Made by a program: the position numbers and the translations under genes
NCBI RefSeq assembly: GCF_038452265.1
Contig: NZ_CP151843.1
Location: forward strand, 521,221-553,220
Length of the DNA stretch: 32,000 bases
Source of the DNA: Vibrio diazotrophicus
GTDB lineage: Bacteria; Pseudomonadota; Gammaproteobacteria; Enterobacterales; Vibrionaceae
Direction of reading: 5' to 3'
Notes under the pieces: model-generated
The model's input: the letters and a program-made list of their open reading frames with translations, nothing else
Told to the model about the DNA's origin: nothing
Database searches by the model: none
Shown: positions 896 to 24,252 of the stretch, piece after piece
Numbering within the stretch: the first letter of the stretch is position 1
How the letters are laid out: each line of letters begins with the position of its first letter

Positions 896-1900
896 ATGAC
901 AAAGACAACAATCCTTCTTTTATGCGGCGGCGGATCTTCAGAGCATGCTGTATCTCTTGTTTCTGCTAATTATCTGCAGCAGCAATTAGCATTAACTCCT
1001 GAATTCGAAGTCATTCGTGTCGAAATGAATCAAGATGGTTGGTTCGCAGAAAACAACGAGCTCGTTTATTTAGATACCAATACCGCGACACTAAATAGTG
1101 ACAGCTTCGTGAAGAAAGTGGATTTTGTCGTTCCATGTATTCATGGGTATCCGGGCGAGACGGGTGATATTCAGTCAATGCTAGAATTGGCAGGAATCCC
1201 TTATCTGGGTTGTGCTCCTGAAGCCAGCAGCAATAGCTTCAACAAAATCACTTCTAAGCTATGGTATGACGCATTAGGCATTCCAAATACGCCTTATTTA
1301 TTCTTAACTGAGAACACTCAAGAGTCCTATGATCTCGCAAAAAAAGCGTTCAATAAATGGGGTAAAGTGTTTATCAAAGCAGCCCGTCAGGGATCATCAG
1401 TCGGCTGTTACAAGGTCACAAAGACTGAAGATATAGCAGGCGCCGTAGATGCTGCATTTGGTTATTCGGAGCAGGTTCTAGTCGAAAAAGCTGTGAAACC
1501 TCGTGAGCTTGAAGTGGCGGCGTACGAGATTAATGGTGAATTGCACATTTCTCAACCAGGTGAAATCATTGCGCCAGAGGATGCTTTCTATACCTATGAA
1601 GAAAAATACAGTGTGGACAGCCACTCAACTACAGAAGTAGAAGCGAAAAATCTTACAGATGAACAGCGCCAAGTTATCCATCAAAGTGCTGTAAAAGTGT
1701 TTAAACATATGAAGTTAAGACACCTTTCACGCATCGATTTTTTCCTTACTTCAGAAGGGGATGTGTATTTAAATGAAGTCAATACATTCCCAGGAATGAC
1801 GCCAATTTCAATGTTTCCTAAAATGCTAGAGCACAACGGTCATAAGTTTTCCGACTTTTTGGCTCAGTGTGTAAAGAGTTCTCTTATTCCCAAGGCTTAA
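896..1900 (+). CDS. ddl: D-alanine--D-alanine ligase
   Basis: 334 aa. N-terminus ILLLCGGGSSEHAVSLVSA, ATP-grasp core (KAARQGSSVGCYKV, RIDFFL...YLNEVNTFPGMT) and length are typical of Ddl. Confidence 0.9.
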   Translation: MTKTTILLLCGGGSSEHAVSLVSANYLQQQLALTPEFEVIRVEMNQDGWFAENNELVYLDTNTATLNSDSFVKKVDFVVPCIHGYPGETGDIQSMLELAGIPYLGCAPEASSNSFNKITSKLWYDALGIPNTPYLFLTENTQESYDLAKKAFNKWGKVFIKAARQGSSVGCYKVTKTEDIAGAVDAAFGYSEQVLVEKAVKPRELEVAAYEINGELHISQPGEIIAPEDAFYTYEEKYSVDSHSTTEVEAKNLTDEQRQVIHQSAVKVFKHMKLRHLSRIDFFLTSEGDVYLNEVNTFPGMTPISMFPKMLEHNGHKFSDFLAQCVKSSLIPKA

Positions 1901-2843
1901 ATGAGAAAAATTTAAGCTTCTCTTGTTCAGCTGTGCCTTTATTACCTACATATTGGTATGGCATAGCTGGACTAAGCCATCTTCCAAACTCCTGAATTTC
2001 TTTGATTTTATAGCCTTGTTCAGACAATTCCTGAACAGCACCAACTCTCGCTGATTGGCCAGAGAATTTAAGTTCTGGTTTACCGAGTAAAGTACCAGCA
2101 TTTCTTAGAATTCGAAATATCGAAGAATCATTGAGAATATTGTTTGCAACGTTACCGTGTTTATCTATCGACCGAAAAACATAATTGCTATCACGAGTGA
2201 CTATTTTTAGCCATTTGTTCAAACAATTTGTTGCGTTTCGGGAGAGTTGGTAATGAGATTGTCCAAATGATAAAACCAAATATTCATTATTAGTTTCGAT
2301 CTGGCTGAACGTTAGGCTTTTCAGTTCGGAGCGCTTCAAGGCACATTCAAACATCACATGGTAAATCGCTAAATCTCTGATCTCTTTTACCGACTTAGAA
2401 GTTGAATAGCTTGAATATAACGCTTCTAAGTGAACACTGGTAAAACTCGTTGCTTGTTCTTCGTCTCCCTTTTTATTAAGCCGAAGAGCCATAAGTGATT
2501 GTCTTACCTGTGGATTATTTGTAGGGTCTTTTAGCGCCAACAAGCGATGAATTAGACCAATAGTGACACTGTAGCGTCTTATCGAGCTATATTTACGCAC
2601 TTTAGCTTCAGATTCGAGAAATAAGCGAGTAGCTGTGACTGAAGCGGGAAGTGCCATAACAGACTTACTTTGGCAGAAACTCACAAACAAATTCCAATCA
2701 TTCTTTAGCGCTAACAGAGAGTTATGTGCATAAGAATGTTGTGTTAGGTCATTCATTTGTTCTAGACTTACCGTCTTATTAAACTCGGTAAGCTTATGTT
2801 TTAGAATGTTTTGATCTGTGACGCAAGTTAGCTTTTTTTTCAT
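1884..2843 (-). CDS. Cre-like tyrosine recombinase (divergent catalytic set)
   Basis: 319 aa. The C-terminus SGQSARVGAVQELSEQGYKIKEIQEFGRWLSPAMPYQYV aligns with Cre GHSARVGAARDMARAGVSIPEIMQAGGWTNVNIVMNYI. Arg-I lies in ALKRSEL. Gln sits at the Cre His289 position, and Trp and Tyr keep the Cre spacing (W+9=Y). The 3' end overlaps the ddl 3' end by 17 nt. Confidence 0.7.
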   Translation of the reverse strand: MKKKLTCVTDQNILKHKLTEFNKTVSLEQMNDLTQHSYAHNSLLALKNDWNLFVSFCQSKSVMALPASVTATRLFLESEAKVRKYSSIRRYSVTIGLIHRLLALKDPTNNPQVRQSLMALRLNKKGDEEQATSFTSVHLEALYSSYSTSKSVKEIRDLAIYHVMFECALKRSELKSLTFSQIETNNEYLVLSFGQSHYQLSRNATNCLNKWLKIVTRDSNYVFRSIDKHGNVANNILNDSSIFRILRNAGTLLGKPELKFSGQSARVGAVQELSEQGYKIKEIQEFGRWLSPAMPYQYVGNKGTAEQEKLKFFSFKPWE

Positions 2844-4558: not shown

Positions 4559-5452
4559 ATGGATAGATTAAAAGCCGCAAGAGTGTTCATTGATGTCGCA
4601 CAATCAGGTAGCTTTACTATGACAGCGGACAGACTGAGTATGTCACGACCCATGGTTACCCGTTATATAGAGTCGATGGAAGAGTGGCTAAACGTTCGGT
4701 TGCTACATCGCACAACGAGAAAGGTGACTTTAACGTCAGCAGGCAAAAACTGTTTAATGCAGGTGGAAAGCTGGCTTCTTGCCGGCGAAGAACTTGCAGA
4801 TATTACTCACTCTGGTTCATCAGATTCTCTAAAAGGCAGAATAAAAGTTTCAACCAGTATGTCTTTTGGATTTTCCCAGTTAGTACCAGCCACAAAGCTC
4901 TTTATGGACAATTATCCAGATATAGTTGTAGATATTAATGTCGAAGATACAGTCACTGATCTGGTTGAGCAGCAGATAGACTTAGCGATAAGAATCTCTT
5001 CAAATCCTGATCCTTCCTTGATTGGTAAACCAATTGGTGATTGCCAATCGGTTTTAGTCGCTTCACCAGAATATATCGCTGAGCATACGACAATTATTAA
5101 CCCAAGAGATTTGTTGAGTCACAAATGTCTTGGTTATAAACATTTCGAACAACATGTATGGCATTTAAGCTATGGTGAACAGCATGAGTCTATTGAAATT
5201 GAACCTTGCTTATCTGCAAATGAGGCTACAGTACTATTGCATGCTGCAAAGTGTGGGATGGGGGTGACACTTCAACCTACGTATCTAGTTTCTTCAGAGA
5301 TAGAATCGGGTTCACTGGTTCATGTTTTACCTGATTGGCAACCAAGCAAGCTCAAGATTTACGCTTTGTATTCATCGAGAAAATATTTATCTCAAGCTGT
5401 CAGGGCTTATATCGATTTTATCTCAGAGTACTTTTCAAAGCATCGATGGTAG
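4559..5452 (+). CDS. LysR-family transcriptional regulator
   Basis: 297 aa. It has an N-terminal winged HTH (FIDVAQSGSFTMTADRLSMSRPMVTRYIESMEEWLNVRLLHRTTRKVTLT) plus a LysR substrate-binding domain. It is divergent from the DsbA-like gene. Confidence 0.9.
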   Translation: MDRLKAARVFIDVAQSGSFTMTADRLSMSRPMVTRYIESMEEWLNVRLLHRTTRKVTLTSAGKNCLMQVESWLLAGEELADITHSGSSDSLKGRIKVSTSMSFGFSQLVPATKLFMDNYPDIVVDINVEDTVTDLVEQQIDLAIRISSNPDPSLIGKPIGDCQSVLVASPEYIAEHTTIINPRDLLSHKCLGYKHFEQHVWHLSYGEQHESIEIEPCLSANEATVLLHAAKCGMGVTLQPTYLVSSEIESGSLVHVLPDWQPSKLKIYALYSSRKYLSQAVRAYIDFISEYFSKHRW

Positions 5453-5536
5453 CGCAAACAATGAATGCCTAAAAGCCGGCATGAATTAAACCGATGCGTA
5501 TCAATGAAATCTCATCAGTTATAGAAAGGTTTACAT

Positions 5537-5583
5537 CCTAATAACTACATTTTTAATCACAGATGATAAATGTAGTTATTAGG
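5537..5583. terminator. 16-bp perfect inverted repeat (probably the LysR terminator)
   Basis: CCTAATAACTACATTT (5537-5552) pairs with AAATGTAGTTATTAGG (5568-5583), with a 15-nt loop followed by TATTTTAT. It lies about 85 nt after the LysR stop and about 95 bp from dif. Confidence 0.45.
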
Positions 5584-5676
5584 TATTTTATGGTAAATGC
5601 CAGTTATGTAAAATGCAGAGGGAACAGAGTAGTTATCGGTGCAATACAGGTACGCTATTCGATCCTAGAAAACCAC

Positions 5677-5704
5677 ATTTAACATAACATACATAATGCG
5701 CACT
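5677..5704 (-). other. dif: dif site (XerC/XerD chromosome dimer resolution site)
   Basis: ATTTAACATAACATACATAATGCGCACT is the reverse complement of AGTGCGCATTA-TGTATG-TTATGTTAAAT. As far as I recall this is 28/28 identical to V. cholerae dif1. It differs from E. coli dif at 3 positions by my count. Confidence 0.85.
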
Positions 5705-5729
5705 TAGGTATGAGCTATTTTAAAATGTC

Positions 5730-6041
5730 CTATGCGGATGTTTTCCTTAATCCAATGTCTAACGGCTTGTCTTCTAAGGCTTCCAGTATCATTCCAAAGC
5801 GCTTTAGCTCTAAGCCGCCAAAGTTATTCACGGCGTAACTTGAACTGTGTGGCGTGTAACTTCCTGCTGCGTATGGCTCTTGGTCTTTCTCAAGCGTCAG
5901 TTTCATTTCGACTGGGAACTTACCACCTAGATGCGCGTAAGCGATTTGTTCGTAGATGATTCGCCCTGGGCGATCTTCTTTGCTTGGTATGTTTCGAGTT
6001 TCAACGCGAACGTTTTCTGGGAAGATTTCGATTTTAAGCAT
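5730..6041 (-). CDS. Filamentous-phage gene V-type ssDNA-binding protein
   Basis: MLKIEIFPENVRVETR...IYEQIAYAHLGGKFPVEMKLTLEKDQEPYAAGSYTPHSSSYAVNNFGGLELKR aligns along its length with M13 gVp (MIKVEIKPSQ...NEQLCYVDLGNEYPVLVKITLDEGQPAYAPGLYTVHLSSFKVGQFGSLMIDR). Confidence 0.85.
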   Translation of the reverse strand: MLKIEIFPENVRVETRNIPSKEDRPGRIIYEQIAYAHLGGKFPVEMKLTLEKDQEPYAAGSYTPHSSSYAVNNFGGLELKRFGMILEALEDKPLDIGLRKTSA

Positions 6042-6133
6042 GTGTTATTCCTCGTGTCGTCATCGTTCTGCATGCGTGCCCGCGCGTCTGCGACACACAA
6101 TGCACACATTTCAGAACTTATGCTGATATTTCT

Positions 6134-7276
6134 CTATGCGATTGCTTTAAATGGTAAAACGTTAGATTTCTCTACAACCGGTAATTGATACCAGTCTGGT
6201 ATGCCCAACGCTTCAACTTCTATGACTTCTGAACGTCTGAGTGTTGGACAGATACGTGTCGCATCAAACGGTAAAGCTATATCGATACCGATGCTTTTTA
6301 GTCGTGGTCGATGCACATAATATTGGCTGTTTTTCTCGATTTTTTGTCCAAGTTGCCACATCAACGCAACGCTTTGAGTCGTATTGGCTGCCAGTCTGCT
6401 GTTTACGATTCCTTGTTCAAGTAGTTGATCTGATATCGATTTATGCGTGTCATGAGTTGCGGTCAGTGTATTCATAGTTTTCTCAAGATCTTTTATATGT
6501 TCGATGAAGTCTTCTAGCGTGGTTTTTCCGTAAAACTGTAAGTTATATCGTTTTAAATGCTTCTGGCTTAATTGGTGTTCTTCTCGAACGACACCATGCT
6601 GCTCGCAGTATGAGATGAGTTTTTCTACGTAGTTAAGCTGTTCTTCTGATACGCCGTCTTTTTTGCGTTTATCTTTTCGTAAGTGATTCTTTAGTTCGTG
6701 TGCTTTAGAGTAGATTTTCGATAGTTTCCAAGAACGTTTTCCCCAGTAGCAACTGGTAAAATCAGGATAAGGCGTTGGCATTCTACTACGACCGAGGGTT
6801 GTTGATGACATTGCCCGTATAAACGTAACTTCTCTGCCCTTGCCTACTTTATGGTTTCGAGTCCAGTCTATACGTGTAATTTCAGCACCATCCCCAATAA
6901 GACGTGGCTTTTTATCTTCTGGAGTTTGACCGAAGTAAACCTTTGTATTCGCAGTAAAAGGTGGAAGATTAAATTTAGCTAAGATGTGATTGTATATATC
7001 AATACATTCATCCAGTGACCGAAGACCAAAGAGATTATCCATACGTTGCCATCGTGACGGGTTACCTTCGATTCTAACGGTGAAGCCATCACAACGAACC
7101 TTCAATGTGGTACTAAATGAACCTTCGAGCCCTTTAGTTTTTACGAACGATGAAAGCCGTTCACCTGTTTCTGAATCGATTTCTTCCATGACACTTTTAC
7201 CCACGAGTGGCAAACCACCCTCAGGATAAAATTGTTGGACTGTTAACCAGTCGATGAAGAAATTTAGCACTCTCAA
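6134..7276 (-). CDS. Rolling-circle replication initiator (gII/RstA-like, Rep_trans type)
   Basis: 380 aa. It has the N-terminal FIDWLTV motif and sits immediately upstream of gV and divergent from a repressor gene, like rstA. The start codon is uncertain (TTG at 7276 or GTG at 7270). Confidence 0.8.
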   Translation of the reverse strand: MRVLNFFIDWLTVQQFYPEGGLPLVGKSVMEEIDSETGERLSSFVKTKGLEGSFSTTLKVRCDGFTVRIEGNPSRWQRMDNLFGLRSLDECIDIYNHILAKFNLPPFTANTKVYFGQTPEDKKPRLIGDGAEITRIDWTRNHKVGKGREVTFIRAMSSTTLGRSRMPTPYPDFTSCYWGKRSWKLSKIYSKAHELKNHLRKDKRKKDGVSEEQLNYVEKLISYCEQHGVVREEHQLSQKHLKRYNLQFYGKTTLEDFIEHIKDLEKTMNTLTATHDTHKSISDQLLEQGIVNSRLAANTTQSVALMWQLGQKIEKNSQYYVHRPRLKSIGIDIALPFDATRICPTLRRSEVIEVEALGIPDWYQLPVVEKSNVLPFKAIA

Positions 7277-7379
7277 AAACCTGTCAAGTATATAAATATA
7301 TATCTGGATGAATACTTTTATTTACCCTAACATAAGAGTGTAGAAATGTGTATGTATAATTAAATTAAGGTTTACTTTT
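7277..7379. promoter_or_regulatory. Divergent promoter/operator region between Rep and the XRE repressor
   Basis: 103-bp AT-rich spacer between divergent genes. TATAAT at 7355-7360 lies upstream of the XRE gene, and AAGG is 9 nt before its ATG. The layout is analogous to the rstR-rstA intergenic region. Confidence 0.5.
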
Positions 7380-7787
7380 ATGGTTAATATGATGATTAAA
7401 GATGTACTTAAAACGGCTAGAAATGAACTTAATCTAAGTCAGGAAGAAGTTGCAGAAGCGATAGGAATTACCAAGCAAACATACTTGAAATGGGAAAATG
7501 GAACGACTGAACCAAAAGCTACTCAAGTTGTTCAGTTAAGTAACGTTCTAAAGATTACACCTAATGAAATTTGCTCTGGCATTCGCAATAAGAGAATGAA
7601 TTTGGAAGAGTTCATTTTAAACACAGCTATGGCTAAAGTTCCAAGCGAAGTAATTACCATGTACTCATGGAAAATGCTCCCTGATCATGTGGAGTTTTTC
7701 AGTAAAATTAATGGGTTAACTGAAGAAGAGTACTACTCAAGCTATGGTGAAGTTGGTTCAATAGAAGCTAAATTTAAGGGCGCGTGA
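7380..7787 (+). CDS. XRE-family HTH repressor (RstR-like position)
   Basis: LKTARNELNLSQEEVAEAIGITKQTYLKWENGTTEPKATQVVQLSNVLKITPNEI is a classic Cro/CI HTH. The gene is divergent from Rep. Confidence 0.8.
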   Translation: MVNMMIKDVLKTARNELNLSQEEVAEAIGITKQTYLKWENGTTEPKATQVVQLSNVLKITPNEICSGIRNKRMNLEEFILNTAMAKVPSEVITMYSWKMLPDHVEFFSKINGLTEEEYYSSYGEVGSIEAKFKGA

Positions 7788-7898
7788 TTCCGGAAGTCCG
7801 GAGTTAGTTCGGGTATAACAGGAACCCGAACCGCTTCGCGCCTTCTTCCTCCTCCTCAGTCGTCGTCGTCGTCATCCTGCGCTCAGGTTTACAGGCAC

Positions 7899-7922
7899 AA
7901 AAAACGGCAGTGAAAACTGCCG
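7899..7922 (-). terminator. Rho-independent terminator of the 83-aa gene
   Basis: On the minus strand: CGGCAG-TTTTCA-CTGCCG followed by TTTTTTG. Confidence 0.6.
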
Positions 7923-8014
7923 CGCGATTGACGTCTACGTAAAGTCGAATTATGAGAGCGCTTGGCTACTCATTTTCTCTCTACACGCGAGCGTATAGCA
8001 GAGAAAATCGAGCT

Positions 8015-8263
8015 TCATAAAAGATTAGTATCAGCACATATAAATATAGTGCCTTCCTTCTCATTTTTTTGAATAGTTAGAGTAGATTTCCCTTCACAGA
8101 ATTGCTCCAAGCGAGGTTTGGCAATTTCTAGTTCGCTTAAAAATTCTTCCCAAGATTGATCATCCTTTTTATCAAAAATAGTTGGGGGAAAGGCTCCAAG
8201 TTGCACACGCTTACTATAAAGATTCTCTATTGCTTTTAAAAAACAATTATCCTGATAAGTCAT
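8015..8263 (-). CDS. hypothetical small acidic protein (82 aa; occupies the rstC-like slot)
   Basis: ATG at 8263 is preceded by AAGGA. No motif recognised. Terminator downstream. Confidence 0.55.
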   Translation of the reverse strand: MTYQDNCFLKAIENLYSKRVQLGAFPPTIFDKKDDQSWEEFLSELEIAKPRLEQFCEGKSTLTIQKNEKEGTIFICADTNLL

Positions 8264-8326
8264 CAATTTATCCTTAAGTTATGTCCTTAACCCAATATAG
8301 CAGTTTTTTTTAGAACAGAGTGCTTA

Positions 8327-8354
8327 AGTACGCATTATGCAATTTATATTACGG
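8327..8354 (+). other. Internal inverted dif-like site (attP partner arm)
   Basis: AGTACGCATTA-TGCAAT-TTATATTACGG. The XerC arm matches 10/11 and the XerD arm 7/11. It is in opposite orientation to the junction site 130 nt away. Confidence 0.6.
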
Positions 8355-8484
8355 GCTTTCATGGCAAAGAGATTCTCTCTCCTAGCATCTACGCAGCTTA
8401 GGCTGCGAGAATGAGCAAGTCTTTCGCCCACTCTTTGCTGCTTCAAGGTCGCCAGTGCTTACGCAATGGTACTGACGACAAACC

Positions 8485-8516
8485 ACTCAACATAAATCAT
8501 AACCATAATGCGCACT
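8485..8516 (-). other. Junction Xer site between satellite copies
   Basis: Reverse complement AGTGCGCATTA-TGGTTATGAT-TTATGTTGAGT. The XerC arm matches 11/11, the spacer is 10 bp, and the XerD-like arm matches 9/11. Confidence 0.7.
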
Positions 8517-8541
8517 TAGGTATGAGCTATTTTAAAATGTC

Positions 8542-8853
8542 CTATGCGGATGTTTTCCTTAATCCAATGTCTAACGGCTTGTCTTCTAAGGCTTCCAGTA
8601 TCATTCCAAAGCGCTTTAGCTCTAAGCCGCCAAAGTTATTCACGGCGTAACTTGAACTGTGTGGCGTGTAACTTCCTGCTGCGTATGGCTCTTGGTCTTT
8701 CTCAAGCGTCAGTTTCATTTCGACTGGGAACTTACCACCTAGATGCGCGTAAGCGATTTGTTCGTAGATGATTCGCCCTGGGCGATCTTCTTTGCTTGGT
8801 ATGTTTCGAGTTTCAACGCGAACGTTTTCTGGGAAGATTTCGATTTTAAGCAT
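8542..8853 (-). CDS. gene V-type ssDNA-binding protein (copy 2)
   Basis: Translation identical to 5730..6041. Confidence 0.85.
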   Translation of the reverse strand: MLKIEIFPENVRVETRNIPSKEDRPGRIIYEQIAYAHLGGKFPVEMKLTLEKDQEPYAAGSYTPHSSSYAVNNFGGLELKRFGMILEALEDKPLDIGLRKTSA

Positions 8854-8945
8854 GTGTTATTCCTCGTGTCGTCATCGTTCTGCATGCGTGCCCGCGCGTC
8901 TGCGACACACAATGCACACATTTCAGAACTTATGCTGATATTTCT

Positions 8946-10088
8946 CTATGCGATTGCTTTAAATGGTAAAACGTTAGATTTCTCTACAACCGGTAATTGA
9001 TACCAGTCTGGTATGCCCAACGCTTCAACTTCTATGACTTCTGAACGTCTGAGTGTTGGACAGATACGTGTCGCATCAAACGGTAAAGCTATATCGATAC
9101 CGATGCTTTTTAGTCGTGGTCGATGCACATAATATTGGCTGTTTTTCTCGATTTTTTGTCCAAGTTGCCACATCAACGCAACGCTTTGAGTCGTATTGGC
9201 TGCCAGTCTGCTGTTTACGATTCCTTGTTCAAGTAGTTGATCTGATATCGATTTATGCGTGTCATGAGTTGCGGTCAGTGTATTCATAGTTTTCTCAAGA
9301 TCTTTTATATGTTCGATGAAGTCTTCTAGCGTGGTTTTTCCGTAAAACTGTAAGTTATATCGTTTTAAATGCTTCTGGCTTAATTGGTGTTCTTCTCGAA
9401 CGACACCATGCTGCTCGCAGTATGAGATGAGTTTTTCTACGTAGTTAAGCTGTTCTTCTGATACGCCGTCTTTTTTGCGTTTATCTTTTCGTAAGTGATT
9501 CTTTAGTTCGTGTGCTTTAGAGTAGATTTTCGATAGTTTCCAAGAACGTTTTCCCCAGTAGCAACTGGTAAAATCAGGATAAGGCGTTGGCATTCTACTA
9601 CGACCGAGGGTTGTTGATGACATTGCCCGTATAAACGTAACTTCTCTGCCCTTGCCTACTTTATGGTTTCGAGTCCAGTCTATACGTGTAATTTCAGCAC
9701 CATCCCCAATAAGACGTGGCTTTTTATCTTCTGGAGTTTGACCGAAGTAAACCTTTGTATTCGCAGTAAAAGGTGGAAGATTAAATTTAGCTAAGATGTG
9801 ATTGTATATATCAATACATTCATCCAGTGACCGAAGACCAAAGAGATTATCCATACGTTGCCATCGTGACGGGTTACCTTCGATTCTAACGGTGAAGCCA
9901 TCACAACGAACCTTCAATGTGGTACTAAATGAACCTTCGAGCCCTTTAGTTTTTACGAACGATGAAAGCCGTTCACCTGTTTCTGAATCGATTTCTTCCA
10001 TGACACTTTTACCCACGAGTGGCAAACCACCCTCAGGATAAAATTGTTGGACTGTTAACCAGTCGATGAAGAAATTTAGCACTCTCAA
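8946..10088 (-). CDS. Rolling-circle replication initiator (copy 2)
   Basis: Translation identical to 6134..7276. Confidence 0.8.
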   Translation of the reverse strand: MRVLNFFIDWLTVQQFYPEGGLPLVGKSVMEEIDSETGERLSSFVKTKGLEGSFSTTLKVRCDGFTVRIEGNPSRWQRMDNLFGLRSLDECIDIYNHILAKFNLPPFTANTKVYFGQTPEDKKPRLIGDGAEITRIDWTRNHKVGKGREVTFIRAMSSTTLGRSRMPTPYPDFTSCYWGKRSWKLSKIYSKAHELKNHLRKDKRKKDGVSEEQLNYVEKLISYCEQHGVVREEHQLSQKHLKRYNLQFYGKTTLEDFIEHIKDLEKTMNTLTATHDTHKSISDQLLEQGIVNSRLAANTTQSVALMWQLGQKIEKNSQYYVHRPRLKSIGIDIALPFDATRICPTLRRSEVIEVEALGIPDWYQLPVVEKSNVLPFKAIA

Positions 10089-10191
10089 AAACCTGTCAAG
10101 TATATAAATATATATCTGGATGAATACTTTTATTTACCCTAACATAAGAGTGTAGAAATGTGTATGTATAATTAAATTAAGGTTTACTTTT
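10089..10191. promoter_or_regulatory. Divergent promoter/operator region (copy 2)
   Basis: Identical to 7277..7379. Confidence 0.5.
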
Positions 10192-10599
10192 ATGGTTAAT
10201 ATGATGATTAAAGATGTACTTAAAACGGCTAGAAATGAACTTAATCTAAGTCAGGAAGAAGTTGCAGAAGCGATAGGAATTACCAAGCAAACATACTTGA
10301 AATGGGAAAATGGAACGACTGAACCAAAAGCTACTCAAGTTGTTCAGTTAAGTAACGTTCTAAAGATTACACCTAATGAAATTTGCTCTGGCATTCGCAA
10401 TAAGAGAATGAATTTGGAAGAGTTCATTTTAAACACAGCTATGGCTAAAGTTCCAAGCGAAGTAATTACCATGTACTCATGGAAAATGCTCCCTGATCAT
10501 GTGGAGTTTTTCAGTAAAATTAATGGGTTAACTGAAGAAGAGTACTACTCAAGCTATGGTGAAGTTGGTTCAATAGAAGCTAAATTTAAGGGCGCGTGA
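10192..10599 (+). CDS. XRE-family HTH repressor (copy 2)
   Basis: Translation identical to 7380..7787. Confidence 0.8.
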   Translation: MVNMMIKDVLKTARNELNLSQEEVAEAIGITKQTYLKWENGTTEPKATQVVQLSNVLKITPNEICSGIRNKRMNLEEFILNTAMAKVPSEVITMYSWKMLPDHVEFFSKINGLTEEEYYSSYGEVGSIEAKFKGA

Positions 10600-10710
10600 T
10601 TCCGGAAGTCCGGAGTTAGTTCGGGTATAACAGGAACCCGAACCGCTTCGCGCCTTCTTCCTCCTCCTCAGTCGTCGTCGTCGTCATCCTGCGCTCAGGT
10701 TTACAGGCAC

Positions 10711-10734
10711 AAAAAACGGCAGTGAAAACTGCCG
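10711..10734 (-). terminator. Rho-independent terminator (copy 2)
   Basis: Identical to 7899..7922. Confidence 0.6.
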
Positions 10735-10826
10735 CGCGATTGACGTCTACGTAAAGTCGAATTATGAGAGCGCTTGGCTACTCATTTTCTCTCTACACGC
10801 GAGCGTATAGCAGAGAAAATCGAGCT

Positions 10827-11075
10827 TCATAAAAGATTAGTATCAGCACATATAAATATAGTGCCTTCCTTCTCATTTTTTTGAATAGTTAGAGTAGATT
10901 TCCCTTCACAGAATTGCTCCAAGCGAGGTTTGGCAATTTCTAGTTCGCTTAAAAATTCTTCCCAAGATTGATCATCCTTTTTATCAAAAATAGTTGGGGG
11001 AAAGGCTCCAAGTTGCACACGCTTACTATAAAGATTCTCTATTGCTTTTAAAAAACAATTATCCTGATAAGTCAT
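10827..11075 (-). CDS. hypothetical small acidic protein (copy 2)
   Basis: Translation identical to 8015..8263. Confidence 0.55.
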   Translation of the reverse strand: MTYQDNCFLKAIENLYSKRVQLGAFPPTIFDKKDDQSWEEFLSELEIAKPRLEQFCEGKSTLTIQKNEKEGTIFICADTNLL

Positions 11076-11138
11076 CAATTTATCCTTAAGTTATGTCCTT
11101 AACCCAATATAGCAGTTTTTTTTAGAACAGAGTGCTTA

Positions 11139-11166
11139 AGTACGCATTATGCAATTTATATTACGG
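11139..11166 (+). other. Internal inverted dif-like site (copy 2)
   Basis: Identical to 8327..8354. Confidence 0.6.
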
Positions 11167-11296
11167 GCTTTCATGGCAAAGAGATTCTCTCTCCTAGCAT
11201 CTACGCAGCTTAGGCTGCGAGAATGAGCAAGTCTTTCGCCCACTCTTTGCTGCTTCAAGGTCGCCAGTGCTTACGCAATGGTACTGACGACAAACC

Positions 11297-11328
11297 ACTC
11301 AACATAAATCATAACCATAATGCGCACT
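11297..11328 (-). other. Junction Xer site between satellite copy 2 and the prophage
   Basis: Same 32 bp as 8485..8516. The sequence to the right then switches to GATTAATGGATTGTT, which is prophage-specific. Confidence 0.7.
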
Positions 11329-11677
11329 GATTAATGGATTGTTGAATCATACCATATCCCATAACAATTGCTCCGTAACTCATTGAAAACCTTTGTAATC
11401 CGTACTTACTGAACTTTTTTGCCATACGCTCCCAGACCTCTTTTGAGATCACACTTTTGCTGCGGTCAACGTGACAACCAATGAGTGCCAGTTCTGGTGC
11501 TATTTTTGTTTTTTCAGCCAGAAAAATTGCTTGTTCATCAGACATATAGCGCTTTCCTTTGCGAAATTCACAGATTCTAGTCGCTGGAACCTCTAAATCC
11601 TGCGCAATTTGCTTGTCTTGTTGGTAGTTTTGCGCCGTTTTATAGGCTTCAATCAGCAAGTTTTGATACATGGACAA
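11309..11677 (-). CDS. Phage HTH transcriptional regulator (repressor-like), divergent from the Rep operon
   Basis: 122 aa. It has an HTH-like segment DKQIAQDLEVPATRICEFRKGKRYMSDEQAIFLA. The last codons and the stop cross the att junction. Confidence 0.6.
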   Translation of the reverse strand: MSMYQNLLIEAYKTAQNYQQDKQIAQDLEVPATRICEFRKGKRYMSDEQAIFLAEKTKIAPELALIGCHVDRSKSVISKEVWERMAKKFSKYGLQRFSMSYGAIVMGYGMIQQSINQCALWL

Positions 11678-11797: not shown

Positions 11798-12016
11798 ATG
11801 CTCAAGCTCACCACCAAGATTTACTATGACTTACTGCCCGATTATTCGGTATCCGTACTTGTGTACGGTTCGACCGAATGGGACGTTTTTCGCAGTATGA
11901 ATCATCTGTGTGCTTGGGCTGACGCCGAAATCCCGTATTACGAGTTGGTCGACATTACCAACACCACCGCGCAACAGCGCATGAACTTAGGGGTTTTCGA
12001 TGGCTGTCAGTATTGA
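11798..12016 (+). CDS. hypothetical small protein upstream of Rep
   Basis: 72-aa ORF that overlaps the Rep start by 17 nt. No motif recognised. Confidence 0.4.
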   Translation: MLKLTTKIYYDLLPDYSVSVLVYGSTEWDVFRSMNHLCAWADAEIPYYELVDITNTTAQQRMNLGVFDGCQY

Positions 12017-13142
12017 TTACCTCTGTTTCACCATGAAAGTAAAAGACTTGCGCCACTGTGCACGTGCTACTTACATGGACACACATCAGCATGACCCTGA
12101 CGTGAAGAAAAAGTCACGCCGTAACACTTTGATGATAAATCCCATAGCGCGCTTTTTCCCACAAGAGCCGGTGTTCAATACCGATTTTCGTGCGCACAGT
12201 GCTGACGACATCGAGGCTTACCGCAATTTCTTCCGCATTCAGTATCAAGAGTATTTAGACCGTTGTTTGAAATTGTTCGTTACTCATGTACTTGGTTTAA
12301 CCATGAACGCGCCGCGTGGGTTTGGTTTTCAGTTCTACACCGAGTCGATGAAACTCACGACCGCAGACGGTGAAGATTTTTGCGGATTTGTGGGGATTGG
12401 TGGCAACCAAGACACGGTGCATTTTCAAATCAATGGTACGGGCTGCAAGCACGTGTTTGCCAAGTTGCAAGCGTGGGAGTTGCACGGCTGGTTATCTAAT
12501 GTGTTAGGCGTTCAACAATTGGCGCGTCTCGACTTAGCGTATGACGATTATCACGGCTTGTTTGATTGTGACTATGCGTTAAAAGCCGCTTATGAGGATG
12601 CGTTTAGAACCGCTTCACGTGGCATTTCTCCAACGGTCAACGAGAACCACAAATACCGCTTTGGTGAGCATGGCGCGAAGCATTACAGCCAAGAAATGGT
12701 CTCGGTCGGCTCTCGAACCTCGCGCATTTACTGGCGCATCTACAACAAAGCGCTGGAGCAGAATCTCGCGCAGAACGGCATGGTCTGGTATCGCACCGAG
12801 TGTGAGCTGAAAAAATGGGACATCGATGCCCTATTAAATCCTGATGGCGCGTTCGCAGCTTTAAATGCCTTTAGTGCGTCTATAAGTAGCGCTCCAGCCT
12901 TTAATACCAAGCCTCGTCCTGAAAAGCGTGTCGCTTGTGATGTGTTAACCGCAGCGTATTGGATGCGCCGCCAGTACGGAAAAATTCTTAATTCGCTGAT
13001 TGAAGAGTTCGACGGCGATATTCCCAAGGTCATTGGATTACTGCAACGGGACGGGCGCAAGTTCAGCTTCCCCGATACCTATACGGCATTAATCCAGTCC
13101 ATTACAAACCGGTCAGTCGACCCATTGGAGTGTAAATCATGA
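12000..13142 (+). CDS. Rolling-circle replication initiator (gII/RstA-like), unrelated in sequence to the satellite Rep
   Basis: 380 aa. N-terminal SIDYLCFT and RLDLAYDDYHG motifs are typical of the Rep_trans family. It heads a tightly coupled operon. Confidence 0.85.
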   Translation: MAVSIDYLCFTMKVKDLRHCARATYMDTHQHDPDVKKKSRRNTLMINPIARFFPQEPVFNTDFRAHSADDIEAYRNFFRIQYQEYLDRCLKLFVTHVLGLTMNAPRGFGFQFYTESMKLTTADGEDFCGFVGIGGNQDTVHFQINGTGCKHVFAKLQAWELHGWLSNVLGVQQLARLDLAYDDYHGLFDCDYALKAAYEDAFRTASRGISPTVNENHKYRFGEHGAKHYSQEMVSVGSRTSRIYWRIYNKALEQNLAQNGMVWYRTECELKKWDIDALLNPDGAFAALNAFSASISSAPAFNTKPRPEKRVACDVLTAAYWMRRQYGKILNSLIEEFDGDIPKVIGLLQRDGRKFSFPDTYTALIQSITNRSVDPLECKS

Positions 13143-15864: not shown

Positions 15865-17193
15865 ATGTTGCACGGTTTCAGTGGCGGTATGGGTACGGGG
15901 AAAAGTCTTAACGCCATCAAGTTTATCATCGAGAACGACAACTTCGCCGACCGTCCTGTGTTCTATCATGGTATTCGGGTGATGCTGCTCGACTACAACG
16001 TGTGTAACAGCTTTCAGGGCTGGCTCTATGGCGTGTATTTCCCAGCAAACAGTCACAACAAAGAGTTAGAAGCGAAACTGTTACGCATCGAGACAGAGCA
16101 ACGTCTGGCAACCCTAGAAGATTTGCCCTATCTGGGTTTTCATTACAAGAAGCACGAACCGTTTAAGCAGTGGCTTTACTGGTTCAAGAAACTGGCATCC
16201 CCTAAGCGCCTCGCCTCGTTTAAAGAAGCCTTAGCCGTGCTTGAACTCGATGAAGAGTCCATCACCTACCAAGACATTGAACACCTGAACCTGTCTTGGA
16301 CATCGTTTGATGATCCAACGGAGATCCACACGCTTCCTGCCGGTTCGGTGATACTGGTTGATGAAGTGCAGAACATTTGGGGCAATCGCACTGCTGGTAA
16401 AACCGTGTCGCCGGATGTGAAGTTCGTGACCACGCACCGGCACAAAGGCATTGATTTGGTCTACATCTCTCAAGACTTTAAAGACGTTGACCAAATCATT
16501 CGTCGGCGTATGCAGTATTACGTCCATTACGAATTCATCGGCGGTGACTGGCTGCATCGATACTTTCACATTGAAGGCTTTGACCCTGCCAATAAAACCG
16601 AACTAGCCAAAGCCGAGAAAGAGAAAGTGAAACGCGATAACAAATACTATGGCGTATATCTCAGCTCGATTAAGCACACGCAAAAAGTCAGGCTCGACCC
16701 GCAGTTAAAGAAAGGCATTATCGGCTTAACCGTTGGCGTGTTGGGTATCAGCGCAGCGGCGTTCTACCTCTATTCGTGGTTTCAAAAACAGGTCACACCG
16801 CCCACGGTCGAGACCGTTCACAGTGAAGCGCCAGCTCCTGAAAGTGCCGAAAATACGCAAGATTTAAAAATGCTGGATATAAACACAGTATATATAGAAG
16901 AATTCCTTCCGCGCTTAGATTCCCTGCCGTTCTCCGCGCCGGTGTATGACTCACTCACGCTCGATGCGAATCAATATCCTGAACTCACTTGTGTGATTGT
17001 GAGAAAGCAATGCAGCTGCTTCACCCAGCAAGGTTCAGCCTATGCCATTCAAGAGAGCGCCTGTTTTAACATTGCTCGCTATGGCTACTTTGACCCGTTT
17101 GAGGCATCCAGCGAGAACCATCAACGCCGAAAAACAGCCCAAAATCGCACTAATAGTGACAATGTCACACTCAACAAAGGTGGACTCTACTAA
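15865..17193 (+). CDS. Zot / pI-type assembly ATPase
   Basis: Walker A GGMGTGKS, Walker B VILVDEVQ and a central TM (IIGLTVGVLGISAAAFYLYSWF). AAGGAG lies 8 nt upstream of the ATG. Confidence 0.85.
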   Translation: MLHGFSGGMGTGKSLNAIKFIIENDNFADRPVFYHGIRVMLLDYNVCNSFQGWLYGVYFPANSHNKELEAKLLRIETEQRLATLEDLPYLGFHYKKHEPFKQWLYWFKKLASPKRLASFKEALAVLELDEESITYQDIEHLNLSWTSFDDPTEIHTLPAGSVILVDEVQNIWGNRTAGKTVSPDVKFVTTHRHKGIDLVYISQDFKDVDQIIRRRMQYYVHYEFIGGDWLHRYFHIEGFDPANKTELAKAEKEKVKRDNKYYGVYLSSIKHTQKVRLDPQLKKGIIGLTVGVLGISAAAFYLYSWFQKQVTPPTVETVHSEAPAPESAENTQDLKMLDINTVYIEEFLPRLDSLPFSAPVYDSLTLDANQYPELTCVIVRKQCSCFTQQGSAYAIQESACFNIARYGYFDPFEASSENHQRRKTAQNRTNSDNVTLNKGGLY

Positions 17194-18380
17194 TGAAACG
17201 TATTCTTGCCCTCGCCTTACTGTGCTTCGCTTCCCGAGCGTTTGCCTTTGAAGCCAACCTCGCCGGTAAGACGCTTAACGAGTTTTTTATCATCTCTAGT
17301 AAGGTGTTTGATAAGACCATCATCGTTGACCCATCTGTTAACGGTGATTTGAAGCTTTATCAAGCCTCGGGCGCGGCGAATTTCCGTGATGTGTGGTTCA
17401 GCGTCATGCGCGCTCATAACCTCACTTACATTGAATCGGGTTCAGTCATTCGCGTAGACAAGCGCAACAAGCTCACTGGCGGCAATGAAATCGTCACGCG
17501 CACGTATAAGCTGCTCTACCTCACCGCCGACGACCTACTGGAGCCGCTGAGAAAGTCTCTGGTTGTGCAATCGTCCGTGCTCGATGTGCCTGATGTGACC
17601 AACGTTGACAGTATCATTGCTGGCTCTGCGCTGATGATTACCGCGCCCAAATCGATGCACAGTGATATTGCGGAGTTTATCGATACGGTCGACAAACCAC
17701 TCAAACAAGTGAAGATACGCGCTGTGATTGTCGAAACCGTTGACGGTGATTTACGCGACTTAACCGTAAACCTCGCCGCTGGTGCCGGTGCCATTAAGAC
17801 GGCGTTTGATGGCTCTGCAATTGCGTTCTTGACCGGCTCTCCCAACTTCACCGCGACCAATGATGATTTTAATGCGTTTGTGCGTTGGGTTGAGTCCAAC
17901 GACAAAACCGAGATATTGAGCCGCCCTGAAATCAGTATCCTGCACGGTCACAGTGGATTGATTAGCGTTGGTCAGGAGCTGCCTATCATTACCGGTTCGT
18001 ACACCACGGAGACAGACGGAAGCAGCAAACCGTTTCAGACGATTGAACGCAAAGACGTAGGATTATCGCTGTGGGTTCAGCCTATGATTGGTTTGAATGG
18101 CGATATTAAACTCAGGGTAAAACAAGAGCTGAGTCGTGTTGATAAATCTGTGGAAGCCAGTGACATTGTCACTAGTAAGCGTCAAATCGACACGGTACTC
18201 TCGGTAAAATCCGGTCAAACCATCGCACTTGGCGGCATGATGGCGAGAGATTCGCAAACCGTGACCATGAAAGTGCCGGTGCTTGGTGATATTCCCTATC
18301 TAGGTGTGCTGTTTCGTTCTGAGACTGAGAAAACCAATAACAGAACGCTTGATGTAGTGCTATACGTTGAACAAACATAG
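17193..18380 (+). CDS. pIV-type secretin (phage export channel)
   Basis: Signal peptide (LLCFASRAFA), N-terminal domains, and a C-terminal secretin core (LSRPEISILHGHSGLISVGQELPIITG ... VPVLGDIPYLGVLFRSETEKTNNRTLDVVLYV). Confidence 0.8.
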   Translation: MKRILALALLCFASRAFAFEANLAGKTLNEFFIISSKVFDKTIIVDPSVNGDLKLYQASGAANFRDVWFSVMRAHNLTYIESGSVIRVDKRNKLTGGNEIVTRTYKLLYLTADDLLEPLRKSLVVQSSVLDVPDVTNVDSIIAGSALMITAPKSMHSDIAEFIDTVDKPLKQVKIRAVIVETVDGDLRDLTVNLAAGAGAIKTAFDGSAIAFLTGSPNFTATNDDFNAFVRWVESNDKTEILSRPEISILHGHSGLISVGQELPIITGSYTTETDGSSKPFQTIERKDVGLSLWVQPMIGLNGDIKLRVKQELSRVDKSVEASDIVTSKRQIDTVLSVKSGQTIALGGMMARDSQTVTMKVPVLGDIPYLGVLFRSETEKTNNRTLDVVLYVEQT

Positions 18381-21552: not shown

Positions 21553-21930
21553 TTAGCGTCTCTCTAAAACTAATATCTTCGCTACAGCCCTAGCGAGTCT
21601 TAATAGTTTTGAACTCGTTTGAAAAGTTTCTTGGCTTTGCCCATACATGAGCGCTTGAGCTAGAAGTATTTGTTGTGGAGTGATAGTTTCACCTGTAGGT
21701 GTAACGATGTGGTGATGGGATATTTTGAAATCTTCCCAGTTCTTCTTGTGACTAATTTCCCTCCCCGTTTGTAACCGCATTAGTCGACGGCAACATTCTG
21801 GTATCTCACGCCCCCTATCCCAAGCCTTCACTGTACTTATGCTTTTACAGCATAAGTCTGCCGCCTGTTCAACGCTGAGGCCACATAAAAATTCCCGAAA
21901 AATTCGATTTTCATTATATTTAATGCGCAT
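21553..21930 (-). CDS. small phage-associated HTH-like regulator (resembles the family I recall as DUF3653)
   Basis: FREFLCGLSVEQAADLCCKSISTVKAWDRGREIPECCRRLMRL. It is about 50% identical by eye to the paralogue at 23469..23825. Confidence 0.6.
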   Translation of the reverse strand: MRIKYNENRIFREFLCGLSVEQAADLCCKSISTVKAWDRGREIPECCRRLMRLQTGREISHKKNWEDFKISHHHIVTPTGETITPQQILLAQALMYGQSQETFQTSSKLLRLARAVAKILVLERR

Positions 21931-21979
21931 ATTAATTGACTAATAAATAAAATTTACGCGCATACTAACCGGACATAAT

Positions 21980-23892: not shown

Positions 23893-23921
23893 ATTTACCG
23901 TAACTGGACATAATGCGCACT
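23893..23921 (-). other. dif-like junction site with a 7-bp centre
   Basis: ATTTACCGTAA-CTGGACA-TAATGCGCACT. The XerD-like arm matches 9/11 and the XerC arm 11/11. Confidence 0.65.
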
Positions 23922-23946: not shown

Positions 23947-24252
23947 CTATGCCATTGTTTTCTTTAAACCAATGTCGATTGGCTTATCTTCTAATGGCTC
24001 GATTATCATACCAAAGCGTTTTAGCTCTAAGCCACCAAAGTTATTTACCACATAACTTGAACTGTGCGGCGTGTATGTGCCAGCTGCGTACGGCTCTTGG
24101 TCTTTCTCAAGCGTCAGCTTCATTTCCATTGGGAACTTACCGCCCAGATGTGCGTACGCGATTTGTTCGTAGATAGTTCGACCTAGTTTGTCATCTTTAC
24201 TTGGGATACTACGAGTTTCTACTCGAACGTTCTGGGAAGATCTCTTCAAAAG
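23947..24252 (-). pseudogene. Decayed gene V-type ssDNA-binding protein remnant
   Basis: About 85% identical by eye to the satellite gV over NVRVETR...DIGL. Relative to 6011-6016 it has lost 2 nt in a T-run, and the ATG region is not conserved (the frame opens only with TTG). Homology stops near 24255. Confidence 0.75.

Follow-up and report, generated by a model that had tools for sequence, protein, structure and literature searches.

The stretch of DNA analysed here, hereafter the window, covers 32,000 nucleotides (nt) of Vibrio diazotrophicus (contig NZ_CP151843.1, positions 521,221 to 553,220 of the forward strand) and contains an array of integrated elements located at the chromosome terminus, at dif1. 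A 28-base-pair (bp) dif on the minus strand (5677-5704; AGTGCGCATTA TGTATG TTATGTTAAAT, with the XerC arm at 5694-5704, the centre at 5688-5693 and the XerD arm at 5677-5687) is canonical, its centre and XerD arm being identical to those of the Vibrio dif1 presented in PMC3089051, and is the live site, re-formed where the array ends. Adjoining it are two copies of a 2812-bp unit, both on the minus strand and 100% identical to each other: copy 1, the closer to dif, at 5694-8505, and copy 2 at 8506-11317. Positions 5692-8516 recur at 8504-11328 with 100% identity and a period of 2812 bp. The unit is very probably a 2.8-kilobase (kb) filamentous-phage satellite that was integrated twice in tandem at dif1 of V. 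diazotrophicus through the route used by CTXphi.

Each copy of the satellite encodes, on the minus strand, a rolling-circle initiator (Rep) of the pII/Cri family (6134-7276, and 8946-10088 in copy 2; PF05144 2.8e-14, PF05155 3.8e-11, phrog_702 3e-87) and a G5P-type single-stranded DNA (ssDNA)-binding protein (5730-6041 and 8542-8853; PF02303 3e-20, phrog_1199). A divergent HTH_3 regulator, assigned with Pfam and PHROG, is found on the plus strand (7380-7787 and 10192-10599) in the position of rstR, as judged from the layout of pre-CTXphi. Between the attachment region (attP) and this regulator lies a variable slot, occupied in the window by an open reading frame (ORF) of 83 amino acids (aa) on the minus strand (8015-8266 and 10827-11078), for which neither a Pfam or PHROG family nor a tblastn match in relatives was found; it may have a role in Xer activation or recombination. 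A low-complexity tract, CTTCTTCCTCCTCCTCAGTCGTCGTCGTCGTC, was also observed between the regulator and this ORF in each copy (7842-7873 and 10654-10685). No recombinase, coat or assembly gene was detected by Pfam or PHROG among the genes of the 2812-bp unit, no DUF3653 or Xaf-like gene was found in the satellite (Pfam, PHROG and the gene contents of relatives), and no rstC-like antirepressor was recognized in it. Because it has neither virion genes nor a recombinase, the element would be, judging from its genes, a satellite or mini-inovirus. Megablast against phage genomes gave no useful nucleotide match for the satellite or for the neighbouring phage, and the informative searches were those at the protein level and the sensitive ('distant') nucleotide ones.

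Two dif-like sites, inverted to each other and with 130 nt between them, are found in the attP region. Site A, which is attP2-like, is on the plus strand at 8327-8354 and reads AGTACGCATTA-TGCAAT-TTATATTACGG (XerC arm 8327-8337, 6-nt centre TGCAAT, XerD arm TTATATTACGG 8344-8354). Site B, which is attP1-like, is on the minus strand at 8485-8516 and reads AGTGCGCATTA-TGGTTATGAT-TTATGTTGAGT (XerC arm 8506-8516, 10-nt centre TGGTTATGAT 8496-8505, XerD arm TTATGTTGAGT 8485-8495); this is the intact copy of site B, situated at the tandem junction. The DNA between the sites forms the fork of a hairpin (8355-8484, minus strand), with helices at 8364-8371/8431-8438 (GCAAAGAG/CTCTTTGC) and 8448-8456/8471-8479 and an apical hairpin at 8392-8407 (CGCAGC-TTAG-GCTGCG). 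An earlier reading of this DNA, made without database searches and referred to below as the sequence-only reading, had proposed both sites as well as the internal pairings 8364-8371/8431-8438 and 8392-8407, and all of these were borne out by direct inspection. It had also placed the same structure at 11139-11328, which is correct and is explained by the presence of the 2812-bp element twice in tandem: site A of copy 2 was read directly at 11139-11166 (plus strand), and a further site B stands at the upstream end of the array (11297-11328, minus strand), where the centre and XerD arm are satellite-derived and the XerC arm (11318-11328) is one donated by the earlier-integrated phage or by dif. 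Two details called for revision. A bubble of 3 versus 7 nt is better described as a 10-nt centre facing a 6-nt centre with an excess of 4-6 nt on the site-B strand, pairing within the centres covering TG next to the XerC arm and, next to the XerD arm, at least AT. The view that neither site has a usable 6-bp centre is right insofar as the centre of site A is unlike that of dif beyond TG and site A is never a junction, but site A does have a 6-bp spacer. Within the 32 kb, six matches to the XerC arm were found at 0-1 mismatch, all six at element boundaries, against a chance expectation that we estimate at about 0.5.

Both strands were folded as ssDNA, and the minus strand gave the forked hairpin that had been anticipated. 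The minus strand, which is the Rep-sense strand, reaches -34.5 kcal/mol (z = -3.57, with none of 200 shuffles as good), compared with -28.9 kcal/mol (z = -2.45) for the plus strand. In the predicted minus-strand structure, the XerC arms and TG form a basal stem, followed by a 4-nt bulge on the site-B side, a XerD-arm stem and the fork. Pre-CTXphi folds with the same stem, bulge, stem and two-armed fork at -51 kcal/mol, and the fork arm 8448-8456/8471-8479 of the window (GTCGTCAGT...ACTGGCGAC on the minus strand) is near-identical to the first fork arm of pre-CTXphi, GTCGTCAGTACCATTGCGTTAGCACTGACGGC. Distant relatives from Aliivibrio, Shewanella and one metagenome-assembled genome (MAG) fold alike. 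An Rfam scan of 5400-11500 (E <= 1) gave no match, so no known RNA family accounts for the structure.

Conservation of the fold was followed in a set of relatives comprising about 95 loci from scans of genomes, viral contigs and metagenomes. Homologues of Rep number 407 at E <= 1e-20; they are mostly from Vibrionaceae and Shewanella, and many are carried on contigs of 2.5-4 kb. Adjoining Rep homologues, 48 distinct attP regions were found with the same paired-site layout: upstream of the regulator and Rep, a site on the Rep strand has a 9-13-nt centre and is followed 35-130 nt downstream by its inverted partner, whose centre measures 5-8 nt. At the two centre positions that border the XerD arm, both sites carry the same base in 41 and 44 of the 48 regions, with about 21 and 18 expected. 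Three different bases are used per position, none of 10000 shuffles reached the observed value, and the two positions belong to no Xer-binding consensus; centre pairs of close relatives are TGGTTATGAT/TGCAAT, TGGATATGAG/TGCAAG and TGGTTATGAA/TGCAAA. Unguided RNAalifold (28 sequences) recovered the XerC-arm, centre-edge and XerD-arm stems. When pairs were counted over the full fork, 91.4% of cells were paired versus 32-52% in slid controls, 20 pairs had double changes versus 8-11, and the covariation score was 0.200 versus at most 0.076, with none of 500 shuffles as good. Compensatory change was detected in seven of the eight pairs of helix 4, which is GCAAAGAG/CTCTTTGC in the window and contains no Xer motif. 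Differences between sites A and B appear as G.T wobbles 104 times on the Rep-sense strand versus 28 times on the other, a bias that points to the Rep-sense strand as the one likely to fold.

The position of the junctions provides a separate line of evidence. On the top strand of dif, which is the minus strand of the window, the array opens with a XerC arm followed by the site-B centre and site-B XerD arm (11328-11297), the fork with site A, and copy 2; it continues with the intact site B (8516-8485), the fork with site A, and copy 1, and closes with a XerC arm followed by the dif centre and dif XerD arm (5704-5677). The two copies cease to be identical beyond the XerC arm and the TG of the centre, so that the repeat alignment agrees with the 2 nt of identity beyond the arm that the sequence-only reading had reported. 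This limit is the product expected from exchange of one strand at the XerC cleavage point of site B. Eight or more integrated relatives show site B on the upstream side and a dif with a 6-nt centre on the downstream side, and seven of the loci concerned are single copies, without exception to this arrangement. A free form from V. cholerae (L105) has AGTGCGTATTA as the XerC arm of site B, whereas in the integrated form of this V. cholerae element (L104) site B bears the host arm ACTGCGCATTA, and AGTGCGTATTA is found on the regenerated dif. In a tandem array of Salinivibrio, the XerC arm is GGTGCGCATTA in the first copy and AGTGCGCATTA in later copies. These swaps imply that the XerC arm is exchanged and that the centre and XerD arm are not; together with the copy junctions of the window, they support the proposal that exchange takes place at the boundary between XerC arm and centre. 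The first one or two centre bases follow the centre of the host dif (TG in Vibrio, TA in Aliivibrio, TC in Enterovibrio and GG in difG-type elements). Site A was never found at a junction, either in the window or in the relatives.

The steps proposed for the satellite match the CTXphi route as described in PMC4246890. In the circular (+) single strand, which would be the Rep-sense (window minus) strand, site B would anneal to the inverted site A, and the stem of the resulting forked hairpin would mimic a dif duplex, with a paired XerC arm and TG, then 4-6 extra unpaired nt on the site-B strand, and beyond this bulge 2 bp and a largely paired XerD arm. Host XerC and XerD would bind this stem, and XerC would cut the strand of site B where its XerC arm meets the centre, the cut strand being swapped with the top strand of dif. 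The pseudo-Holliday junction formed in this way could then be converted to a prophage through replication. One flank of the insert would consist of the host XerC arm with the long centre and XerD arm of the satellite, unusable as a duplex site, and the other of the satellite XerC arm with the centre and XerD arm of dif, that is, a new live dif. The regenerated dif would be open to renewed targeting and hence to the build-up of a tandem array; since the hairpin would be lost once the DNA is double-stranded, Xer would not be expected to excise the element. Instead, new (+) circles would be produced by Rep-driven rolling-circle replication over the tandem junction, recreating the intact attP 8327-8516. 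The anatomy of the unit, the homology of its attP to that of CTXphi, the conserved and covarying fold and the positions of the junctions are shown here; XerC-only catalysis, resolution by replication and irreversibility would be shared with CTXphi by homology, and packaging of the satellite by a helper inovirus is likewise presumed.

Several observations weigh against integration by this route or limit how closely it can be described. The window fold is weaker than that of pre-CTXphi (-34.5 vs -51 kcal/mol), and its XerD-arm stem includes two G.T pairs and two mismatches. Because the XerC arms of the window are all identical, the crossover is bounded there to the XerC arm plus TG and is not pinpointed. 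The covariation counts are all inflated by shared ancestry. The unit is present only once in a draft assembly of this region, so the tandem state depends on the present assembly. XerC-alone catalysis, the need for site A and irreversibility are all extended to the satellite from homology. The inner fork helices, moreover, could serve another function of ssDNA, for example as a complementary-strand origin or a packaging signal. Origins and packaging signals of inoviruses are hairpins in intergenic DNA, a point restated in the preprint on the satellite plasmid pDolos, and the hairpin might accordingly be mainly a replication or packaging structure (a complementary-strand origin or morphogenetic signal), the dif-like arms being secondary. 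Knowledge of such intergenic hairpins favours this explanation, as does the finding that most compensatory change is located in inner helices without a Xer motif (helix 4). However, it leaves unexplained the two dif-like sites at the base of the stem, the first centre bases that track the host dif centre (TG, TA, TC) and the chromosomal junctions located exactly between XerC arm and centre. It is judged improbable as an account of the whole structure, and a dual role of the fork, in integration and in replication or packaging, is possible.

Integration of double-stranded DNA through a single site, of the VGJ or TLC type, is common in Vibrio inoviruses, and in such a scheme the other site of the satellite would be a relic or decoy. 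The spacer of site A is indeed a canonical 6 bp and has TG in common with dif, and neighbours in the array look VGJ- or TLC-type (the 7-nt-centre site at 23893-23921 and the DUF3653 genes described below). Yet the junctions are at site B and never at site A, and site A was rejected as a duplex attP on that ground. Site-B centres, at 9-13 nt family-wide, fall outside the 6-8 bp of the Xer overlap (PMC6744903), the satellite is without a Xaf-like gene, and the inverted partner is conserved and covaries with site B, unlike a relic; we therefore regard a single double-stranded site as very unlikely. The single copy in the draft assembly could also be taken as a sign of chance resemblance or of an assembly artefact. 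This has next to no probability, given that the sites are present in the single-copy draft assembly too, that about 48 distinct relatives, drawn from independent genomes and metagenomes, have the layout as well, and that the z-scores of the fold and the shuffle controls speak against chance. The single-stranded attP of CTXphi style put forward by the sequence-only reading is thus supported by attP homology, layout, fold, covariation and junctions.

Ahead of the satellites, the array contains a complete inovirus, a block with a XafT paralogue and an older satellite relic. The satellites are the youngest inserts of the array, because they adjoin the live dif. The complete filamentous prophage adjoining them (11329-~21930; Pfam/PHROG) has its own secretin and is a candidate helper for the satellite. 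Its genes include a DUF3693 repressor (11309-11677, minus strand), the 3' end of which extends into the XerC arm, an RstA-like Rep_trans (12000-13142), Zot (15865-17193), a secretin (17193-18380) and a DUF3653 XafT-like gene (21553-21930, minus strand), in addition to an RstB-like DUF1293 protein, a pIII-like protein and a stretch of unassigned genes. [quoted passage not shown] A weak XerC-arm-like sequence, TATGCGCATTA, is found at 21921-21931, and the block is either a separate integrative mobile element that exploits Xer (IMEX) or the end of the neighbouring inovirus. In the oldest position of the array, a relic of the satellite family (23922-~24960), now devoid of Rep and attP, borders directly on a XerC arm; its G5P gene (23947-24249) has 85% aa identity to the satellite G5P and 93.6% nt identity to a locus of V. 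cincinnatiensis. In a 2026 preprint, Xaf-encoding IMEXs are described as sitting ahead of CTX-type IMEXs and boosting their integration, and the order seen here, with Xaf-encoding IMEXs first and CTX-type satellites last, fits this proposal. On the other side of dif, a few kb from it, a tyrosine-recombinase-like ORF of 319 aa (1884-2843, minus strand; Phage_integrase 3.4e-12) was observed between ddl and DUF3319/SUI1 genes. Loci of the same synteny in V. cholerae are without this ORF.

In five metagenome contigs, 3.1-4.1 kb long, the ends overlap by 78-127 nt, which indicates complete free circles, and their gene content consists only of Rep, G5P and HTH homologues, together with the paired attP; such contigs would represent the family in its free replicative form. 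Tandem arrays are common in the family, with two to at least three copies in Salinivibrio sp. ES.052 (period 3649 bp), an Aliivibrio MAG (3321 bp) and Shewanella atlantica (3430 bp), as expected for elements that are unable to excise and need tandem copies for regeneration of the circle. Three isolate assemblies of relatives were seen to break exactly at the XerC arm plus TG. No description of the family was found in the literature searched, and one may exist elsewhere; the arm sequences TTATGTTACGG/TTATGTTGAGG were found in the literature only in the CTXphi review. We tentatively propose, while leaning slightly against it on balance, that these elements form a widespread and undescribed family of inovirus satellites of ~3-4 kb, distributed from Vibrionaceae to Shewanella, which combine a pII/Cri Rep, G5P and HTH regulator with a CTX-type attP, exist as free circles and tandem dif inserts, and trade attP with CTXphi-like phages. 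If true, the single-strand integration device of CTXphi would be a mobile cassette among unrelated replicons, and CTXphi would find in the satellites competitors or partners at dif1.

CTXphi is the phage in which single-strand integration by a folded attP was worked out, and few relatives of it are given in the review consulted (RS1, Ypfphi, CUS-1phi). The satellites, with about 48 relatives across many marine Vibrionaceae and Shewanella, add a folded-attP device that is coupled to another replication module. Their natural compensatory mutations map the important pairs of the hairpin, namely the centre edges and the fork helix, and the natural variants are ready material on the rules by which XerCD recognizes folded DNA. 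Current models of integration are not overturned by these findings.

Among known elements, RS1 is similar in size (~2.7-2.8 kb), in carrying regulation and replication genes only, and in its CTX-type attP. It likewise inserts at dif, frequently as tandem copies or next to a full phage, and needs a helper to supply virions. However, RS1 carries rstR/rstA/rstB/rstC, and the Rep (PF05144/PF05155) and ssDNA-binding protein (PF02303) of the satellite are not homologous to these. In the window, the Rep_trans and DUF1293 genes of an RS1/RS2 module are found only in the neighbouring phage (12000-13492), and identity with RS1 was ruled out because the Rep and ssDNA-binding protein belong to different families.

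With TLCphi the satellite has in common an autonomous rolling-circle module, an HTH repressor and a Rep in the Pfam family named after the Cri protein of TLC (PF05144 Phage_CRI 2.8e-14, a likeness at family level), as well as Xer-mediated integration at dif1 and the lack of morphogenesis genes. In TLCphi the attP is single and double-stranded and its XerD arm is degenerate; the phage encodes XafT (DUF3653) and follows a XerD-first, reversible reaction (PMC6744903). The satellite, for its part, carries two inverted sites whose XerD arms are good, its junctions are on the XerC side, and it has no DUF3653; the single attP and XafT of the TLC type are thus both missing. Because it is without DUF3653/XafT and its attP is of a different type, the satellite was rejected as TLCphi itself or a TLC-type IMEX. 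Neither does it have the single paired attP with a ~7-bp centre of VGJ-type elements, the junction site B having a 10-nt centre and site A never being at a junction.

A parallel in lifestyle may be pDolos, a rolling-circle plasmid of ~2.9 kb that is a satellite of the Shewanella inovirus Dolos, encodes Rep, a single-stranded DNA-binding protein (SSB) and small repressors, and has been shown experimentally to be packaged by its helper inovirus (bioRxiv 10.1101/2023.11.28.569023). A helper-packaged circle is the way of life proposed for the free circles of the satellite. However, pDolos does not integrate according to its report, which mentions no dif-like site, and it is likened here by its description and not by Rep homology, pDolos being absent from the plasmid collection searched.

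The closest likeness of the attP itself is to CTXphi and pre-CTXphi. In CTXphi El Tor, attP1 is AGTGCGTATTA TGTGGCGCGGCA TTATGTTGAGG and attP2 is AATGCGTATTA TACGCCA TTATGTTACGG, the two being inverted and ~90 bp apart (PMC3089051). Like attP1, site B has a long centre (10 nt) and a GTTGAG-type XerD arm; like attP2, site A has a short centre (6 nt) and a TTACGG-type XerD arm. Sensitive blastn with the attP region of the window matched CTXphi and pre-CTXphi at attRS, attRS1 and attL features (77-79% over ~75 nt, E 2e-7), as well as the corresponding attP-side region of the Vibrio inoviruses V5, vB_VpI_FR1 and VAI1/VAI2. The strand of pre-CTXphi that matches site B is the one encoding rstA/rstB, with rstR divergent, and the order of attP1-like site, divergent regulator, Rep and SSB relative to that strand is the same as in the satellite. 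Cri-type satellites of V. cholerae bring the two groups closer still: in the integrated (L104, 3810-5212) and free (L105) forms, attP2 is identical to that of El Tor CTXphi. Compared with pre-CTXphi (L106, KP972568), the V. cholerae satellites show 92.7% identity in the 164-nt attP and 97% in a 373-nt stretch of adjoining intergenic DNA, and their replication genes are unrelated. This combination of near-identical attP and unrelated replication genes indicates a probable recent exchange of the attP module, and hints at module exchange bearing on the acquisition of, or change in, integration specificity among toxigenic phages.

Taken as a system, the satellite shares with CTXphi and pre-CTXphi near-identical arms, a forked hairpin on the gene-sense strand and a junction between XerC arm and centre of the attP1-like site; with CTXphi it also has in common that dif is regenerated at the far side, that tandem arrays occur and that no recombinase is encoded by the element. 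It differs from CTXphi in its host, V. diazotrophicus, in its centres (10/6 nt, compared with 12/7), in its spacer (130 nt with an extra sub-hairpin, compared with ~90 nt) and in its content, being a 2.8-kb element with a pII/Cri Rep and G5P and without RstA/RstB, cep-orfU-ace-zot or ctxAB. The model of the CTX-type IMEX was established by Val et al. 2005, as reviewed in PMC3089051 and PMC4246890, and each of its testable features was found here: inverted sites, a fold in silico, the junction, bases matching dif, the lack of a recombinase and attP homology. The satellite is classed as a CTX-type IMEX, a new example of a known device and not a new mechanism, with the modest twist that a TLC-like replication module is joined to a CTX-like attP.

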